A DNA stretch of 64,000 nt, from the NCBI RefSeq assembly GCF_003334255.1, contig NZ_QOWU01000003.1. One strand, 5' to 3'. The first letter of the stretch is position 1. Each line of letters opens with the position of its first letter. Under the pieces are notes generated by a model. That model worked only from the letters and a program-made list of their open reading frames with translations, ran no database searches and was not told where the DNA came from. This DNA comes from Escherichia coli. GTDB taxonomy: Bacteria; Pseudomonadota; Gammaproteobacteria; Enterobacterales; Enterobacteriaceae. Shown in pieces: positions 13,544 to 53,073 of the stretch. Both the position numbers and the translations under genes were made by a program.

Positions 13544-13744
13544 TGTAATATCCTTTCTCTTTCTTAGACAGTACCTTACGGCACTGGTGTTAATACCCGA
13601 TCTTCTGCGCATCCTCGCGACTAATGACAACCCTAACCCAGCTCTATGTGGGTAAAGCCTCTCATTAGCCGCGCGAACCTCTGCAACGGAAGATCATTCA
13701 TAGCAACAATACATTAGTTTCCAGTGAATTGCTGCCGTCAGCTT

Positions 13745-13774
13745 GAAAAAAGGGGCCACTCAGGCCCCCTTTTC
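13745..13774 (-). terminator. Rho-independent terminator after rpsO, inside the rpsO-pnp leader region
   Basis: Minus strand: GGGGGCCTGAGTGGCCCC hairpin followed by TTTTTT. Confidence 0.7.
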
Positions 13775-13789
13775 TGAAACTCGCAAGAA

Positions 13790-14155
<366 letters not shown>

Positions 14156-15553: not shown

Positions 15554-15716
15554 AATAAATTCTCCTGACAAAAAAGGGGCTGTTAGCCCCTTTTTAAAAT
15601 TAATTTCAGGTGGAAGGGCTGTTCACGTTGACCTGATAAGACGCGCCAGCGTCACATCAGGCAATCCATGCCGGATGCAGCGTAAACGCCTTATCCCGCA
15701 TGGAACCCTAAAAACC

Positions 15717-20381: not shown

Positions 20382-20405
20382 GCCCACCCCCAAGACATAA
20401 AAAAA

Positions 20406-20466
20406 GGGCCTAAAGCCCAGTTATTCTGTAGTCAGATAACAAAAAACCCCGATAAATCGGGGCTTT
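20406..20466 (-). terminator. Two tandem hairpin plus U-run structures between metY and rimP
   Basis: Minus strand: gccccgatttatcggggc followed by TTTTTT, then gggctttaggccc followed by TTTTTTT. Confidence 0.55.
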
Positions 20467-20587
20467 ATATAACTGAACCCTATAACCGCAACTGCGGTCT
20501 GGAGCACTTTCCAGAAGGATTTTTTCAAATCCCACTACGAAGGCCGAAGTCTTCACAGTATATTTGAAAAAGGACTCTAAGGGAAAG

Positions 20588-31183: not shown

Positions 31184-31219
31184 CAAAAAAATACCGACCC
31201 GGGTACAAGTCCCAGGTCA
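31184..31219 (-). terminator. graL: Intrinsic terminator/attenuator in the greA leader (3-prime end of the GraL leader RNA)
   Basis: Minus strand: gacctgggacttgtacccgggtc hairpin followed by GGTATTTTTTT, about 95 nt upstream of the greA ATG. Confidence 0.5.
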
Positions 31220-31337
31220 GCTACAATTCACATTTTGATAGTCATTTTACCCTGAAGTTCCCGAAGGGTCATCGTTTACTTTATAGGGCGTTGCGCCGTA
31301 GTATGACGGCTCGATTCCAGGTTGTTAGCGCGAGATT

Positions 31338-43641: not shown

Positions 43642-44628
43642 ATGTCGCACGTAGAGTTACAACCGGGTTTTGACTTTCAGCAAGCAGGTAAAGAAGTCCT
43701 GGCGATTGAACGTGAATGCCTGGCGGAGCTTGATCAATACATCAATCAGAATTTCACGCTTGCCTGTGAAAAGATGTTCTGGTGTAAAGGGAAAGTTGTC
43801 GTCATGGGGATGGGAAAATCGGGGCATATTGGGCGAAAAATGGCGGCAACGTTTGCCAGCACCGGTACACCTTCATTTTTCGTCCATCCTGGTGAAGCCG
43901 CGCATGGTGATTTAGGCATGGTTACCCCACAGGATGTGGTGATTGCTATCTCTAACTCTGGTGAATCCAGCGAAATCACGGCCTTAATTCCAGTGCTTAA
44001 GCGTCTTCACGTACCGTTAATCTGCATCACCGGTCGCCCGGAGAGCAGCATGGCGCGCGCCGCAGATGTGCATCTGTGTGTTAAAGTAGCGAAAGAAGCC
44101 TGTCCGTTAGGGCTGGCACCGACCAGCAGCACCACCGCCACGCTGGTTATGGGCGATGCCCTCGCTGTCGCGCTGTTAAAAGCACGCGGCTTTACTGCTG
44201 AAGATTTTGCGCTCTCACACCCAGGCGGCGCACTGGGTCGTAAACTTCTGCTGCGCGTAAACGATATTATGCATACGGGCGATGAGATCCCGCATGTTAA
44301 GAAAACGGCCAGTCTGCGTGACGCGTTGCTGGAAGTTACCCGCAAAAATCTTGGTATGACTGTCATTTGCGATGACAATATGATGATTGAAGGCATCTTT
44401 ACCGACGGTGATTTACGCCGTGTCTTCGATATGGGCGTGGATGTTCGTCAGTTAAGTATTGCCGATGTGATGACGCCGGGGGGAATACGTGTGCGCCCTG
44501 GCATTCTGGCCGTTGAGGCACTGAACTTAATGCAGTCCCGCCATATCACCTCCGTGATGGTTGCCGATGGCGACCATTTACTCGGTGTGTTACATATGCA
44601 TGATTTACTGCGTGCAGGCGTAGTGTAA
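43642..44628 (+). CDS. kdsD: D-arabinose 5-phosphate isomerase KdsD, 328 aa
   Basis: ORF track 43621..44628; start trimmed to MSHVELQPGFDFQQAGKEVL; SIS domain followed by tandem CBS domains. Confidence 0.92.
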   Translation: MSHVELQPGFDFQQAGKEVLAIERECLAELDQYINQNFTLACEKMFWCKGKVVVMGMGKSGHIGRKMAATFASTGTPSFFVHPGEAAHGDLGMVTPQDVVIAISNSGESSEITALIPVLKRLHVPLICITGRPESSMARAADVHLCVKVAKEACPLGLAPTSSTTATLVMGDALAVALLKARGFTAEDFALSHPGGALGRKLLLRVNDIMHTGDEIPHVKKTASLRDALLEVTRKNLGMTVICDDNMMIEGIFTDGDLRRVFDMGVDVRQLSIADVMTPGGIRVRPGILAVEALNLMQSRHITSVMVADGDHLLGVLHMHDLLRAGVV

Positions 44629-44648
44629 AGATTCAAGGATAAACAACA

Positions 44649-45215
44649 ATGAGCAAAGCAGGTGCGTCGCTTGCGACCTGTTACGGCCCTGTCAGCGCCG
44701 ACGTTATAGCAAAAGCAGAGAACATTCGTCTGCTGATCCTCGATGTCGATGGCGTACTGTCAGATGGCCTGATTTATATGGGCAATAATGGCGAAGAGCT
44801 GAAAGCGTTCAATGTTCGTGACGGTTATGGCATTCGTTGTGCGCTCACCTCTGATATTGAAGTCGCTATCATTACCGGGCGAAAGGCTAAACTGGTAGAA
44901 GATCGTTGTGCCACATTGGGGATCACTCACTTGTATCAGGGGCAGTCAAACAAACTGATCGCCTTTAGCGATCTGCTGGAAAAACTGGCGATTGCCCCGG
45001 AAAATGTGGCTTATGTCGGCGATGATCTCATCGACTGGCCGGTAATGGAAAAAGTGGGTTTAAGCGTCGCCGTGGCCGATGCGCATCCACTGTTGATCCC
45101 GCGCGCCGATTACGTGACGCGCATTGCTGGCGGTCGTGGCGCAGTGCGCGAAGTTTGCGACTTATTACTCCTGGCGCAGGGCAAACTGGATGAAGCCAAA
45201 GGGCAATCGATATGA
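44649..45215 (+). CDS. kdsC: KDO 8-phosphate phosphatase KdsC, 188 aa
   Basis: ORF track; HAD motif LLILDVDGVLSDG. Confidence 0.93.
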   Translation: MSKAGASLATCYGPVSADVIAKAENIRLLILDVDGVLSDGLIYMGNNGEELKAFNVRDGYGIRCALTSDIEVAIITGRKAKLVEDRCATLGITHLYQGQSNKLIAFSDLLEKLAIAPENVAYVGDDLIDWPVMEKVGLSVAVADAHPLLIPRADYVTRIAGGRGAVREVCDLLLLAQGKLDEAKGQSI

Positions 45216-45787
45216 GTAAAGCCAGACGTTGGGTTATCATTGTGCTATCACTGGCGGTTCTGGTGATGATCGGCATTAATATGGCCGAAAAAGACGATAC
45301 CGCCCAGGTGGTCGTCAACAACAATGATCCCACCTATAAAAGCGAGCATACGGACACGCTCGTCTATAACCCAGAAGGGGCACTAAGCTATCGATTGATT
45401 GCTCAACACGTTGAATATTATTCCGATCAGGCCGTTTCGTGGTTTACGCAGCCGGTACTTACCACGTTTGATAAGGATAAAATCCCGACATGGTCCGTAA
45501 AAGCAGATAAAGCCAAGCTGACCAATGACCGGATGCTCTATTTATATGGACACGTTGAAGTCAACGCACTTGTGCCAGACTCTCAACTTCGCAGAATCAC
45601 GACGGATAACGCGCAGATCAATCTGGTGACGCAGGATGTTACCTCTGAAGACCTCGTCACGTTATACGGAACAACATTTAACTCCAGCGGTCTGAAAATG
45701 CGCGGCAACTTACGCAGCAAGAACGCCGAGCTGATTGAAAAGGTTAGAACATCCTATGAAATTCAAAACAAACAAACTCAGCCTTAA
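45212..45787 (+). CDS. lptC: LPS export anchor protein LptC, 191 aa
   Basis: ORF track; single N-terminal TM helix; ATGA overlap with the kdsC stop. Confidence 0.92.
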   Translation: MSKARRWVIIVLSLAVLVMIGINMAEKDDTAQVVVNNNDPTYKSEHTDTLVYNPEGALSYRLIAQHVEYYSDQAVSWFTQPVLTTFDKDKIPTWSVKADKAKLTNDRMLYLYGHVEVNALVPDSQLRRITTDNAQINLVTQDVTSEDLVTLYGTTFNSSGLKMRGNLRSKNAELIEKVRTSYEIQNKQTQP

Positions 45788-46313
45788 TCTTGTGCTTGCC
45801 AGCTCACTTCTGGCCGCCAGCATTCCGGCATTTGCCGTAACCGGAGACACTGATCAGCCGATCCACATTGAATCGGACCAGCAATCTCTTGATATGCAAG
45901 GCAACGTGGTTACCTTTACCGGTAATGTCATCGTCACCCAGGGCACCATCAAAATTAATGCCGACAAAGTGGTCGTTACCCGTCCGGGCGGCGAACAAGG
46001 TAAAGAAGTGATTGACGGCTACGGTAAACCGGCAACGTTCTACCAGATGCAGGACAACGGTAAACCCGTTGAAGGTCACGCTTCCCAGATGCACTACGAA
46101 CTGGCAAAAGATTTTGTCGTTCTGACGGGTAATGCTTATCTGCAGCAGGTCGATAGCAACATTAAGGGCGATAAGATCACTTACCTGGTGAAAGAGCAGA
46201 AAATGCAGGCTTTCAGCGACAAAGGCAAGCGCGTAACAACCGTTCTGGTGCCGTCGCAGCTGCAGGACAAAAACAACAAAGGCCAGACCCCGGCACAGAA
46301 GAAGGGTAATTAA
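45756..46313 (+). CDS. lptA: Periplasmic LPS transport protein LptA, 185 aa
   Basis: ORF track 45735..46313; start trimmed to MKFKTNKLSLNLVLASSLLAASIPAFA (signal peptide); 32-nt overlap with the lptC 3-prime end. Confidence 0.9.
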   Translation: MKFKTNKLSLNLVLASSLLAASIPAFAVTGDTDQPIHIESDQQSLDMQGNVVTFTGNVIVTQGTIKINADKVVVTRPGGEQGKEVIDGYGKPATFYQMQDNGKPVEGHASQMHYELAKDFVVLTGNAYLQQVDSNIKGDKITYLVKEQKMQAFSDKGKRVTTVLVPSQLQDKNNKGQTPAQKKGN

Positions 46314-46319
46314 TTCGTT

Positions 46320-47045
46320 ATGGCAACATTAACTGCAAAGAACCTTGCAAAAGCCTATAAAGGCCGTCGCGTGGTAGAAGACGTCAGCCTGACCGTCAAC
46401 TCCGGGGAAATTGTCGGTCTGCTGGGGCCAAACGGTGCCGGTAAGACCACCACTTTCTACATGGTTGTAGGCATTGTGCCGCGCGATGCGGGCAACATCA
46501 TTATTGATGATGACGATATCAGTCTGCTGCCTCTGCATGCACGCGCGCGCCGCGGTATCGGCTATCTGCCACAGGAAGCCTCCATTTTCCGTCGCCTCAG
46601 CGTTTACGATAACCTGATGGCGGTACTGCAAATTCGTGACGACTTGTCTGCTGAACAACGTGAAGACCGCGCGAACGAGCTGATGGAAGAGTTTCACATT
46701 GAGCACCTGCGTGACAGCATGGGGCAGTCACTCTCCGGGGGTGAACGTCGCCGTGTAGAAATTGCCCGCGCACTGGCTGCGAATCCGAAATTTATTCTGC
46801 TCGACGAACCGTTTGCCGGGGTTGACCCGATCTCGGTTATCGACATTAAACGCATCATTGAGCACCTGCGCGACAGCGGCCTGGGCGTGCTGATCACTGA
46901 CCACAACGTGCGTGAAACACTGGCGGTTTGTGAACGCGCTTATATCGTCAGTCAGGGGCATTTGATCGCCCACGGCACGCCTACAGAAATCTTACAAGAC
47001 GAACACGTTAAGCGTGTATACCTTGGGGAAGACTTCAGACTCTGA
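46320..47045 (+). CDS. lptB: LPS export ABC ATPase LptB, 241 aa
   Basis: ORF track; Walker [10 protein letters not shown], signature LSGGERRR, Walker B LLDEP. Confidence 0.95.
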
Positions 47046-47092
47046 TAGGGTAGAAGTTTGCGACGTTTTAGCAGGAGAGTACGATTCTGAAC

Positions 47093-48526
47093 ATGAAGCA
47101 AGGTTTGCAACTCAGGCTTAGCCAACAACTGGCGATGACGCCACAGCTCCAACAGGCAATTCGTCTGTTGCAGTTGTCGACGCTGGAACTTCAGCAGGAG
47201 CTACAGCAGGCGCTGGAGAGTAATCCGCTGCTTGAGCAAATCGACACTCATGAAGAAATCGACACCCGCGAAACGCAAGACAGTGAAACGCTGGACACCG
47301 CCGACGCGCTCGAACAAAAAGAGATGCCGGAAGAGCTGCCGCTCGATGCCAGTTGGGACACCATTTACACCGCTGGTACACCATCCGGCACCAGCGGTGA
47401 CTACATTGACGACGAGCTGCCGGTCTACCAGGGCGAAACGACGCAGACCTTGCAGGATTACCTGATGTGGCAGGTTGAGCTGACACCGTTTTCCGACACT
47501 GACCGCGCTATTGCTACCTCTATCGTCGATGCCGTTGATGAAACCGGTTATCTGACTGTCCCGCTGGAAGATATTCTCGAAAGTATAGGCGATGAAGAGA
47601 TCGACATCGACGAAGTTGAAGCCGTCCTTAAGCGGATCCAACGGTTTGATCCGGTCGGTGTGGCGGCAAAAGATCTGCGTGACTGTCTGCTGATCCAACT
47701 CTCCCAATTCGATAAGACCACGCCGTGGCTGGAAGAGGCCAGACTGATCATTAGCGATCATCTCGATCTGTTAGCCAATCACGACTTCCGCACTTTAATG
47801 CGCGTCACGCGTCTGAAAGAAGATGTGCTGAAAGAAGCCGTCAATCTGATCCAGTCGCTCGATCCGCGCCCCGGGCAGTCGATCCAGACTGGCGAACCTG
47901 AGTATGTCATTCCAGATGTGCTGGTGCGTAAGCATAACGGTCACTGGACGGTAGAACTCAACAGTGACAGCATTCCGCGTCTGCAAATCAACCAGCACTA
48001 CGCCTCGATGTGCAATAACGCGCGCAACGATGGTGACAGCCAGTTTATCCGCAGCAATCTGCAGGATGCCAAATGGTTGATCAAGAGTCTGGAAAGCCGT
48101 AACGATACGCTACTGCGCGTGAGTCGCTGTATCGTTGAACAGCAGCAAGCCTTCTTTGAGCAAGGTGAAGAATATATGAAACCGATGGTACTGGCCGATA
48201 TCGCCCAGGCTGTCGAAATGCATGAATCGACGATATCTCGCGTGACCACGCAAAAATACCTGCATAGTCCACGAGGCATTTTTGAACTGAAGTATTTCTT
48301 TTCCAGTCACGTCAATACCGAGGGCGGCGGCGAAGCTTCCTCCACGGCGATTCGTGCGCTGGTGAAGAAATTAATCGCGGCGGAAAACCCAGCGAAACCG
48401 TTGAGCGACAGCAAGTTAACCTCTTTGCTGTCGGAACAAGGTATCATGGTGGCACGCCGCACTGTTGCGAAGTACCGAGAGTCTTTATCCATTCCGCCGT
48501 CAAACCAGCGTAAACAACTCGTTTGA
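47093..48526 (+). CDS. rpoN: RNA polymerase sigma-54 factor RpoN, 477 aa
   Basis: ORF track; Gln/Leu-rich region [29 protein letters not shown]; RpoN box [10 protein letters not shown] at the C-terminus. Confidence 0.95.
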
Positions 48527-49490: not shown

Positions 49491-50345
49491 ATGGTACTGA
49501 TGATCGTCAGCGGACGTTCAGGTTCAGGTAAATCTGTCGCCCTGCGTGCGCTGGAAGATATGGGTTTTTACTGCGTGGATAACCTTCCCGTAGTGTTGTT
49601 ACCCGATCTGGCTCGAACCCTGGCCGATCGCGAGATTTCTGCCGCCGTCAGCATTGATGTTCGTAATATGCCGGAGTCACCAGAAATATTCGAACAGGCG
49701 ATGAGTAACCTGCCTGACGCTTTCTCACCGCAACTCCTGTTCCTGGATGCCGACCGTAATACCTTAATTCGTCGTTACAGTGACACGCGCCGACTGCATC
49801 CGCTTTCCAGCAAAAACCTGTCGCTGGAAAGTGCTATCGACAAAGAAAGCGATTTGCTGGAGCCTCTGCGTTCGCGAGCGGATCTGATTGTCGATACCTC
49901 AGAAATGTCCGTTCACGAGCTGGCTGAAATGCTGCGTACCCGTCTGCTGGGTAAACGTGAACGCGAACTGACCATGGTCTTTGAGTCTTTCGGCTTCAAA
50001 CACGGTATCCCTATCGATGCAGATTACGTCTTTGACGTGCGCTTCTTGCCGAACCCGCACTGGGATCCGAAACTGCGTCCAATGACAGGTCTTGATAAAC
50101 CTGTCGCCGCGTTCCTCGACCGCCACACAGAAGTACACAATTTTATCTACCAGACGCGAAGCTATCTTGAGCTATGGTTACCTATGCTGGAAACCAACAA
50201 CCGTAGCTACTTGACGGTCGCCATTGGTTGTACCGGCGGGAAGCACCGTTCGGTGTATATTGCAGAGCAACTGGCAGACTACTTCCGCTCGCGCGGTAAA
50301 AACGTCCAGTCACGCCATCGTACGCTGGAAAAACGTAAACCATGA
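49491..50345 (+). CDS. rapZ: RNase adapter protein RapZ (YhbJ), 284 aa
   Basis: ORF track; Walker A GRSGSGKS. Confidence 0.93.
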
Positions 50346-52952: not shown

Positions 52953-53073
52953 GTGCGGCCTGAAAAACAGTGCTGTGCCCTTGTAACTCATCATAATAAT
53001 TTACGGCGCAGCCAAGATTTCCCTGGTGTTGGCGCAGTATTCGCGCACCCCGGTCTAGCCGGGGTCATTTTTT
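52953..53073 (+). ncRNA. arcZ: Hfq-dependent small RNA ArcZ (SraH/RyhA), about 121 nt
   Basis: Begins GTGCGGCCTGAAAAACAGTGCTGTGCCC and ends with hairpin CACCCCGGTCTAGCCGGGGTCA followed by TTTTTT on the plus strand; the 3-prime end overlaps the arcB stop codon on the other strand. Confidence 0.8.

Follow-up and report, generated by a model that had tools for sequence, protein, structure and literature searches.

The lptA gene of Escherichia coli is very probably initiated at the ATG at position 45756 of the window (the whole 64,000-nucleotide stretch of DNA analyzed here) from an exposed and conserved region of its own, and any coupling of its translation to that of the preceding lptC gene would be facultative rather than obligate. 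Under the proposed mechanism, the last nine codons of lptC together with its stop codon would double as codons 1-11 of LptA and would thus also encode the positively charged n-region of a Sec signal peptide. The initiation region is envisaged as having two parts, namely a purine-rich block within lptC codons 174-180, which would supply the weak and distant Shine-Dalgarno (SD) element AAGG, and an A-rich, probably unstructured stretch around the ATG. Since this region appears to be exposed, 30S subunits could start lptA de novo, both on the full operon mRNA and on shorter transcripts from promoters internal to lptC. Additionally, ribosomes ending lptC 29 nt downstream may slide back and re-initiate at lptA, a contribution that would possibly be made but would remain optional. 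The geometry of the junction suggests that a ribosome terminating at 45785-45787 would cover the mRNA from approximately 45767 onward, with the SD element and the ATG lying just behind it.

The overlap between the two genes is in itself an ordinary feature that is already known from annotation and the literature, the length of 32 nt having been published for E. coli by Benedet et al. (PMC4986956). The elements added by the present analysis are the location of the ATG within the codons for Tyr182 and Glu183 of LptC, the synonymous constraint upstream of it, the accessibility of the surrounding RNA, and the presence of the overlap in Vibrionaceae.

The locus and its gene boundaries

Over positions 45100-46400 the window shares 100% DNA identity with E. 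coli K-12 MG1655, and a match at ≥99% to this segment is present in every one of the 5426 complete E. coli genomes. The 80-nt lptC/lptA junction is found without a mismatch (≥99%) in 5423 of these 5426 genomes. The RefSeq/PGAP boundaries of lptC and lptA in MG1655 (3113-3688 and 3657-4214 of locus L001, whose position 3001 equals 45100 of the window) coincide with 45212-45787 and 45756-46313. In agreement with this, inspection of the bases confirmed that the lptA ATG lies 32 nt before the end of lptC at 45787, as an earlier note on this DNA had it, and that the open reading frame begins at 45735 with a TTG in frame with the ATG at 45756-45758. The lptA frame is +1 relative to that of lptC, and the ATG falls at position 3341403 of MG1655 U00096.2. 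LptC is recovered by the family models NF008142 (364.1 bits, cut-off 230) and TIGR04409 (176.7 bits, cut-off 38; residues 6-182 covered), and LptA by TIGR03002 (172.9 bits, cut-off 71.7). The coordinates of the features discussed below are collected in Table 1.

The ATGA overlaps that had been noticed at kdsC/lptC and at rapZ/npr (50342-50345) are both real, although rapZ and npr form part of the downstream rpoN unit. Their placement in the same operon as lptA was mistaken, as the yrbG operon, with lptC, lptA and lptB as the promoter-distal three of its six cistrons, includes neither gene (PMC4986956). The locus is the same as the published yrbG-kdsD-kdsC-lptC-lptA-lptB operon (Polissi/Deho, summarized in PMC4986956), from which it does not differ in boundaries or in the 32-nt overlap. 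The position of lptA between lptC and lptB, and the gene order in general, are also kept in distant loci.

The products of lptC, lptA and lptB are essential for the transport of lipopolysaccharide to the outer membrane, and the machine that they form is an antibiotic target. The exact start of lptA matters for residue numbering, for the construction of clean lptC and lptA deletions and for the control of LptA levels, and any edit of the 3' end of lptC always touches the lptA start region. Annotation and strain design in the field already reflect this start; the comparative details given below are useful when strains are designed and, to a specialist, unsurprising.

Table 1. Features of the lptC/lptA junction and synonymous codon entropy along lptC (positions in the window)
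Feature	Positions	Strand	Remarks
lptC coding sequence	45212..45787	+	191 codons and TAA; ORF list, RefSeq, NCBIfam, PDB 3my2 and 6mi7
kdsC/lptC ATGA stop-start overlap	45212..45215	+	bases read directly
SigmaE-like motif GGAACAA-N16-TCTGA, candidate lptAp1	45668..45695	+	pattern match inside lptC
Near-invariant block CTGATTGAAAAGGTTAGAAC	45731..45750	+	lptC codons 174-180; putative lptA ribosome-binding region
TTG, longest-ORF start, rejected	45735..45737	+	directly 3' of in-frame TGA 45732-45734
A-rich stretch at lptA start, predicted unstructured	45752..45776	+	most unpaired 25-mer of 44600-47100
lptC TAT GAA (Tyr182-Glu183), containing the lptA ATG	45755..45760	+	TAT in 78/78, GAA in 78/78 loci
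lptA coding sequence	45756..46313	+	185 codons and TAA, from ATG 45756; RefSeq, NF008143, conservation
Dual-coding overlap ATGAAATTCAAAACAAACAAACTCAGCCTTAA	45756..45787	+	32 nt; LptC E183-P191 and stop, LptA M1-N11 (n-region)
LptA signal peptide MKFKTNKLSLNLVLASSLLAASIPAFA	45756..45836	+	27 codons; mature start V28 (45837); predicted from sequence features
RNA 5' end of lptB transcript	45771..45771	+	15 nt inside lptA; RegulonDB via PMC5230787
lptC stop codon TAA	45785..45787	+	29 nt 3' of the lptA ATG, counted from its A
lptC codons 20-165 (gene body)			normalized synonymous codon entropy 0.735
lptC codons 173-179	45728..45748		normalized synonymous codon entropy 0.037, lowest 7-codon window in lptC
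lptC codons 180-181			normalized synonymous codon entropy 0.575
lptC codons 182-191 (overlap)			normalized synonymous codon entropy 0.294

Choice of the lptA start codon

The assignment of the lptA start to ATG 45756 is strongly supported, this being the conserved and annotated codon from which residues are numbered in LptA structures. A single-protein locus search provided a comparative set of 80 Enterobacteriaceae genomes, one per species, with LptA identities of 80-100%, and the aligned start is ATG in all 80 loci. The overlap measures 32 nt in 75 of them, 20 nt in three and 17 nt in two; the lptC stop is TAA throughout (80/80), and its position is shifted in the five loci with the shorter overlaps. 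The invariance of the ATG and the predominance of the 32-nt length, taken together with the retention of the junction across E. coli genomes, show that the overlap is not due to chance. The selection of this codon by the earlier note is likewise borne out by RefSeq and by the curated LptA model NF008143, against which the protein scores 368.4 bits (cut-off 234) with residues 1-185 aligned end to end on profile positions 1-184 of 184. Most LptA homologues in the database are 183-185 aa long and begin at the Met of ATG 45756, and the first residue in PDB constructs of the mature protein is 27 or 28 as numbered from this codon. When read by eye, the n-region carries three Lys and is followed by a hydrophobic core, with the residues A-F-A ahead of V28. 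In the searchable supplementary data of TRAINSPOTTER, INRI-seq and TetRP, no initiation-site entries were found for lptA, lptC, yhbN or b3200.

The presence of a signal peptide had been given as the reason for preferring the ATG, and this argument does not hold, because a start at TTG 45735 would merely prepend MKRLEHP, so that both candidates would have the predicted signal peptide. An origin of LptA at this TTG, giving a 192-aa precursor, is nevertheless exceedingly improbable. The TTG is the first start codon in the open frame, it is kept at -21 in 74 of the 80 loci, and a longer form of LptA does appear in a few database entries, e.g. P0032 (192 aa) and P0004 (191 aa). However, its bases are fixed by the lptC codons CTG ATT GAA, and an in-frame TGA lies immediately 5' of it. 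Furthermore, in six of the 80 loci, including those of Intestinirhabdus, Pluralibacter and Pseudenterobacter, GTG replaces GTT in lptC, an exchange that leaves LptC unaltered but introduces a TGA at -12 in the lptA frame, between the position of the TTG and the ATG, with the consequence that the ATG is the first possible lptA start in these genomes. The only bases that vary freely from the TTG to the ATG, 45751 and 45754, are third positions of lptC codons and second positions of codons in the extension, where they bring about exchanges among His, Pro, Leu and Arg; this argues that the extension frame is free of coding constraint. The upstream region of the TTG offers an anti-SD duplex of -2.2 kcal/mol (a 3-pair GAG match) against -3.4 for that of the ATG. 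In an RNAplfold-type calculation over 44600-47100 (kdsC-lptB), which predicts the state of naked RNA and not that of translated mRNA, the -12 to +13 window of the TTG is only at the 58th percentile of accessibility, whereas that of the ATG is at the 98th. Lastly, NF008143 begins at the ATG and not at the TTG. The latter is therefore best regarded as a longest-ORF artefact, given the TGA at -12 in six loci and the unconstrained extension.

Long annotated overlaps are frequently the result of start-site mispredictions. Accordingly, the opposite possibility also has to be weighed, namely that the annotated start is too long, that the overlap is not real and that lptA begins at GTG 45792, which is in frame and just past the lptC stop. 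This too is hardly credible. The resulting product (MLASSLL...) would be devoid of a positively charged n-region, and its start would discard LptA residues K2, N6, K7, L8 and S9, which are conserved as amino acids at 94-100%. The site encodes Val in about two-thirds of the loci, with GTG in 25, GTA in 12 and GTT in 11 of 78; it has no SD element (+1.2 kcal/mol) and ranks at the 51st percentile of accessibility. The GTG was consequently rejected on the absence of an SD element, the lack of codon conservation and the removal of the Lys-rich n-region. A programmed frameshift yielding an LptC-LptA fusion was also considered, since lptA lies in the +1 frame, and was set aside as there is no slippery site. 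One apparent fusion of this kind among the database proteins (P0189) retains the LptA signal peptide behind a scrambled linker and looks like an assembly frameshift. In practical terms, the value of these comparisons is confirmatory: the annotated start is right and the longest-ORF start is wrong.

The overlap in distant relatives and the C-terminus of LptC

A more distant set comprised seven LptA relatives (~40-50% identity) with a readable end of the upstream gene, some of their starts being those assigned by a gene caller. The lptC and lptA genes overlap in six of these seven loci, by 20 nt in four (including Grimontia, of the Vibrionaceae), by 23 nt in one, and by 17 nt in a sixth if the homologous ATG replaces the gene-caller start; the seventh displays an 88-nt gap from lptC to lptA. 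In all six overlapping loci the ATG spans a Tyr codon and the Glu or Gly codon that follows it (TATGAA or TATGGA), close to the C-terminus of LptC. The TIGR04409 model of LptC ends exactly at E. coli residue 182, and Y182 is located where LptC meets LptA, in the C-terminal strand (PMC5575297). Thus, the tail of LptC is variable in length while the ATG is anchored at the last residue that is conserved in LptC, implying that the length of the overlap reflects only that of the tail. On the whole, the position of the lptA start looks old and fixed, and tied to a conserved residue of LptC.

These observations also bear on the possibility that the arrangement has no regulatory role, i.e. that the location of the ATG in the conserved Tyr-Glu codons closing the LptC domain is fortuitous, that LptC runs on for a few dispensable residues to the first stop, and that both frames tolerate the overlap. 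This is possible, if somewhat doubtful. It would account for the constancy of the ATG amid overlaps of 17, 20, 23 and 32 nt, for the five Enterobacteriaceae lineages in which earlier stops shorten the LptC tail and leave lptA unchanged, and for the end of the LptC family model at residue 182; moreover, cells are reported to be viable when the last 53 residues of LptC are missing (PMC5575297). On the other hand, within Enterobacteriaceae the tail is more conserved than LptA residues 3-5 (see below), which hints at some constraint on the tail, and the persistence of the overlap in both Vibrionaceae and Enterobacteriaceae is also expected under selection for coupling. The absence of a regulatory role does not conflict with the start at ATG 45756 as the best explanation of where lptA translation begins.

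Synonymous constraint upstream of the start

Codon-level counts, which cover 78 fairly close species, reveal a sharply delimited zone of constraint near the end of lptC (Table 1). The minimum of synonymous entropy along the gene is reached in codons 173-179; the two codons directly before the ATG vary freely at their third positions, and the overlap itself is intermediate. Within the near-invariant block ATT, GAA and AAG are each found in 78 of 78 loci and GTT in 72 of 78, and the codon of Arg179 is the rare AGA in every one of the 72 loci with Arg at this position. The codons that contain the ATG are similarly invariant: Tyr182 is always TAT, while Tyr152 of lptC, taken for comparison, is TAC in 56 loci and TAT in 22. 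The block includes the SD-like AAGG at 45740-45743, 12 nt 5' of the ATG, whose anti-SD duplex of -3.4 kcal/mol makes it a weak SD element with a spacing above the optimal. Based on this pattern, we infer that the block probably acts as the ribosome-binding site of lptA. Within the overlap, LptC residues 183-191 are conserved at 91-100% among Enterobacteriaceae, compared with 56-63% for LptA residues 3-5, and changes that are silent in lptC fall in the n-region of the LptA signal peptide (F/S, K/R, T/I). The engineering of lptC should therefore spare the Tyr182 codon as well as the 20-nt block upstream.

The invariance of the block in 78 species, including its rare AGA, could be given a more far-reaching interpretation, although an improbable one. 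The block might be a dedicated regulatory site, such as one for sRNA or protein binding, for ribosome standby, or for an internal promoter or processing signal tied to the RNA 5' end at 45771; or else the location of the start on the last conserved LptC residue might be a frozen relic of the time when the genes for LptC and LptA, which share the beta-jellyroll, became adjacent. If it existed, such a dedicated site would set the output of LptA (and LptB) independently of LptC, for instance during the response to lipopolysaccharide stress that has been reported for lptAp1.

Internal promoters and the RNA 5' end

Upstream of lptA, the lptC gene contains the minor promoters lptAp1, which depends on sigmaE, and lptAp2; these promoters drive lptAB when both the transcription and the translation of lptC are off, and such cells are viable with lptC in trans (PMC4986956). 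The sigmaE-like motif that is a candidate for lptAp1 (Table 1) is present in only 12 of 78 loci, and a loose sigmaE pattern matches six times in the window against 4.9 matches expected, i.e. without enrichment. A sigma70 promoter scan of 45200-46400 gave no matches. The 5' end at 45771 derives from a 549-nt 5'-UTR of lptB (3341418-3341966) attributed to RegulonDB in Table S3 of PMC5230787, the coordinates of which were converted via the yrbG entry of the same table. As a separate observation on lptB, a kasugamycin translatome lists this gene alone as resistant, with no values for lptA or lptC, and thus says nothing on the coupling of lptA.

The location of this 5' end raises the possibility that the block 45731-45750 owes its conservation mainly to its use as a weak sigma70 promoter for an lptB-only transcript starting at ~45771, with a -35 element TTGAAA (45735-45740), an N16 spacer and a -10 element TGAAAT (45757-45762), and not to its use as the ribosome-binding site of lptA. 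TTGAAA does agree with five of the six positions of the -35 consensus. Nevertheless, we consider this quite unlikely. The candidate -10 element lacks the key A at position 2, the promoter scan of the region gave no match, and the 5' end at 45771 could equally result from cleavage of the RNA within the A-rich, single-stranded stretch. The would-be spacer AAGGTTAGAAC is conserved as well, which is unusual for promoters, and the distant loci retain the purine-rich, SD-like run upstream of the ATG although the -35-like hexamer has disappeared. Both of these features favor the interpretation of the block as a ribosome-binding region over that as a promoter.

Coupling of lptA translation to lptC

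The earlier note had proposed tight translational coupling of lptC and lptA. The co-directional arrangement, the shared mRNA and the conserved overlap stand in favor of some coupling, while an obligate form is weakened by the exposed start, its own SD block and the internal promoters. The pair overlaps by 32 nt within a single operon (PMC4986956), and its spacing of -32 is atypical when set against -4 and -1. Under obligate coupling, virtually all LptA would be synthesized by ribosomes coming directly from lptC, which would scan back 29 nt from 45785-45787 and thereby fix the LptC:LptA ratio. Several points are consistent with this: both cistrons are read co-directionally from one operon mRNA (PMC4986956), the overlap is kept in 80 of 80 Enterobacteriaceae and six of seven distant loci, a weak and distant SD element would suit a start that is helped by local delivery of ribosomes, and backward re-initiation over -38 nt is documented in the coat-lysis pair of phage fr (PMC12548453).

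Obligate coupling is nevertheless unlikely. Transcripts from lptAp1 and lptAp2, which start inside lptC, supply lptAB under lptC depletion (PMC4986956). The near-invariant block ahead of the ATG points to a ribosome-binding site that can function on its own, and the efficiency of coupling drops with the distance between stop and start, the usual spacings of coupled pairs being -4 and -1 (PMC12548453). Coupling through the unfolding of RNA would call for a sequestered ribosome-binding site, and the lptA start instead falls within the 25-mer that is predicted to be the least paired in the kdsC-lptB region; in the prediction, 45700-45800 does not fold more stably than shuffled sequence (z = -0.58), leaving nothing for an upstream ribosome to unmask. 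An Rfam scan of the whole window gave no match at the lptC/lptA junction. Independent starting of lptA from its own initiation region, to which re-initiation may make an optional addition, is hence the preferred explanation.

The junction can be compared with two known types of coupled genes. In common with the re-initiation pairs of the ATGA (-4) and TGATG/TAATG (-1) types (PMC6728339, PMC10666635, PMC12548453), lptC and lptA are co-directional, encode partners of one complex and share bases. Unlike them, the lptA start is 29 nt upstream of the stop, so that re-initiation would require backward movement of the ribosome after termination, and ten codons are constrained in both proteins. The coat-lysis junctions of the RNA phages fr and MS2 (-38 and -50 nt; PMC12548453) resemble lptC/lptA in having a start tens of nucleotides upstream of the stop, and in phage fr the nearest start is reached through backward scanning by ribosomes that have terminated at this stop (PMC12548453). 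The lysis start in these phages is otherwise silent, being weak or structured, and its coupling is obligate, whereas the lptA start is exposed and conserved and works on transcripts without lptC translation. True cases of the -4 type are found nearby, at kdsC/lptC and rapZ/npr.

Candidate internal promoters and an RNA 5' end in the lptC-lptA-lptB segment

Inside lptC, upstream of lptA, lies a sigmaE-like motif (Table) which may represent lptAp1, the published sigmaE-dependent promoter of lptA (PMC4986956). Of the 78 Enterobacteriaceae loci compared, only 12 have this motif, among them those of Escherichia and Buttiauxella. Should the motif correspond to lptAp1, the sigmaE input would be confined to certain lineages.

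An RNA 5' end is placed within lptA itself. The lptB mRNA, one of the kasugamycin-resistant transcripts, is assigned a 549-nt 5'-UTR, for which RegulonDB is cited as the source (PMC5230787 Table S3), and on mapping of coordinates the 5' end of this leader falls at window position 45771, 15 nt past the lptA ATG. A pair of hexamers close to this position could possibly constitute a weak sigma70 promoter giving rise to the 5' end; alternatively, the end could be a processing site within an A-rich stretch.

RNA elements elsewhere in the window

A scan of the window against Rfam at the gathering threshold recovered two tRNAs and the greA leader alongside the other elements in the Table, all of which are expected for this region of the E. 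coli chromosome. A near-consensus sigmaE-type motif is also present within the greA leader match.

Table. RNA elements and promoter-like motifs, in window coordinates (RNA elements as listed by Rfam)
Feature	Position	Strand	Sequence or source
SraG	13602-13773		Rfam
S15 leader	14003-14117		Rfam
naRNA4	15630-15700		Rfam
rimP leader	20399-20499		Rfam
greA leader	31186-31307		Rfam
sigmaE-type motif	31234-31261	-	GGAACTT-N16-TCAAA
sigmaE-like motif	45668-45695		GGAACAA-N16-TCTGA
Candidate weak sigma70 hexamer	45735-45740		TTGAAA
Candidate weak sigma70 hexamer	45757-45762		TGAAAT
ArcZ	52953-53060		Rfam

Atypical loci and LptA relatives

Two metagenomic relatives of LptA, P0165 (311 aa) and P0186 (326 aa), contain two tandem LptA domains in a single polypeptide with one signal peptide, an arrangement that looks like a built-in LptA dimer. 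A third homologue, P0189 (348 aa), resembles an LptC-LptA fusion, but since its linker is scrambled and the signal peptide of LptA is still present, it is probably a frameshift artefact rather than a genuine fusion.

The record titled Chryseobacterium sp. 18061 (CACSKA010000008.1) carries an enterobacterial kdsC-lptC-lptA-lptB locus, whose LptA is 81% identical to that of E. coli and whose junction pattern, a 17-nt overlap with an in-frame TGA at -12, is shared with Citrobacter sp. 18056. This assembly is likely to be mislabelled or contaminated. Among 5426 complete E. coli genomes, one contains the lptC/lptA junction twice, with the additional copy lying on a plasmid record.
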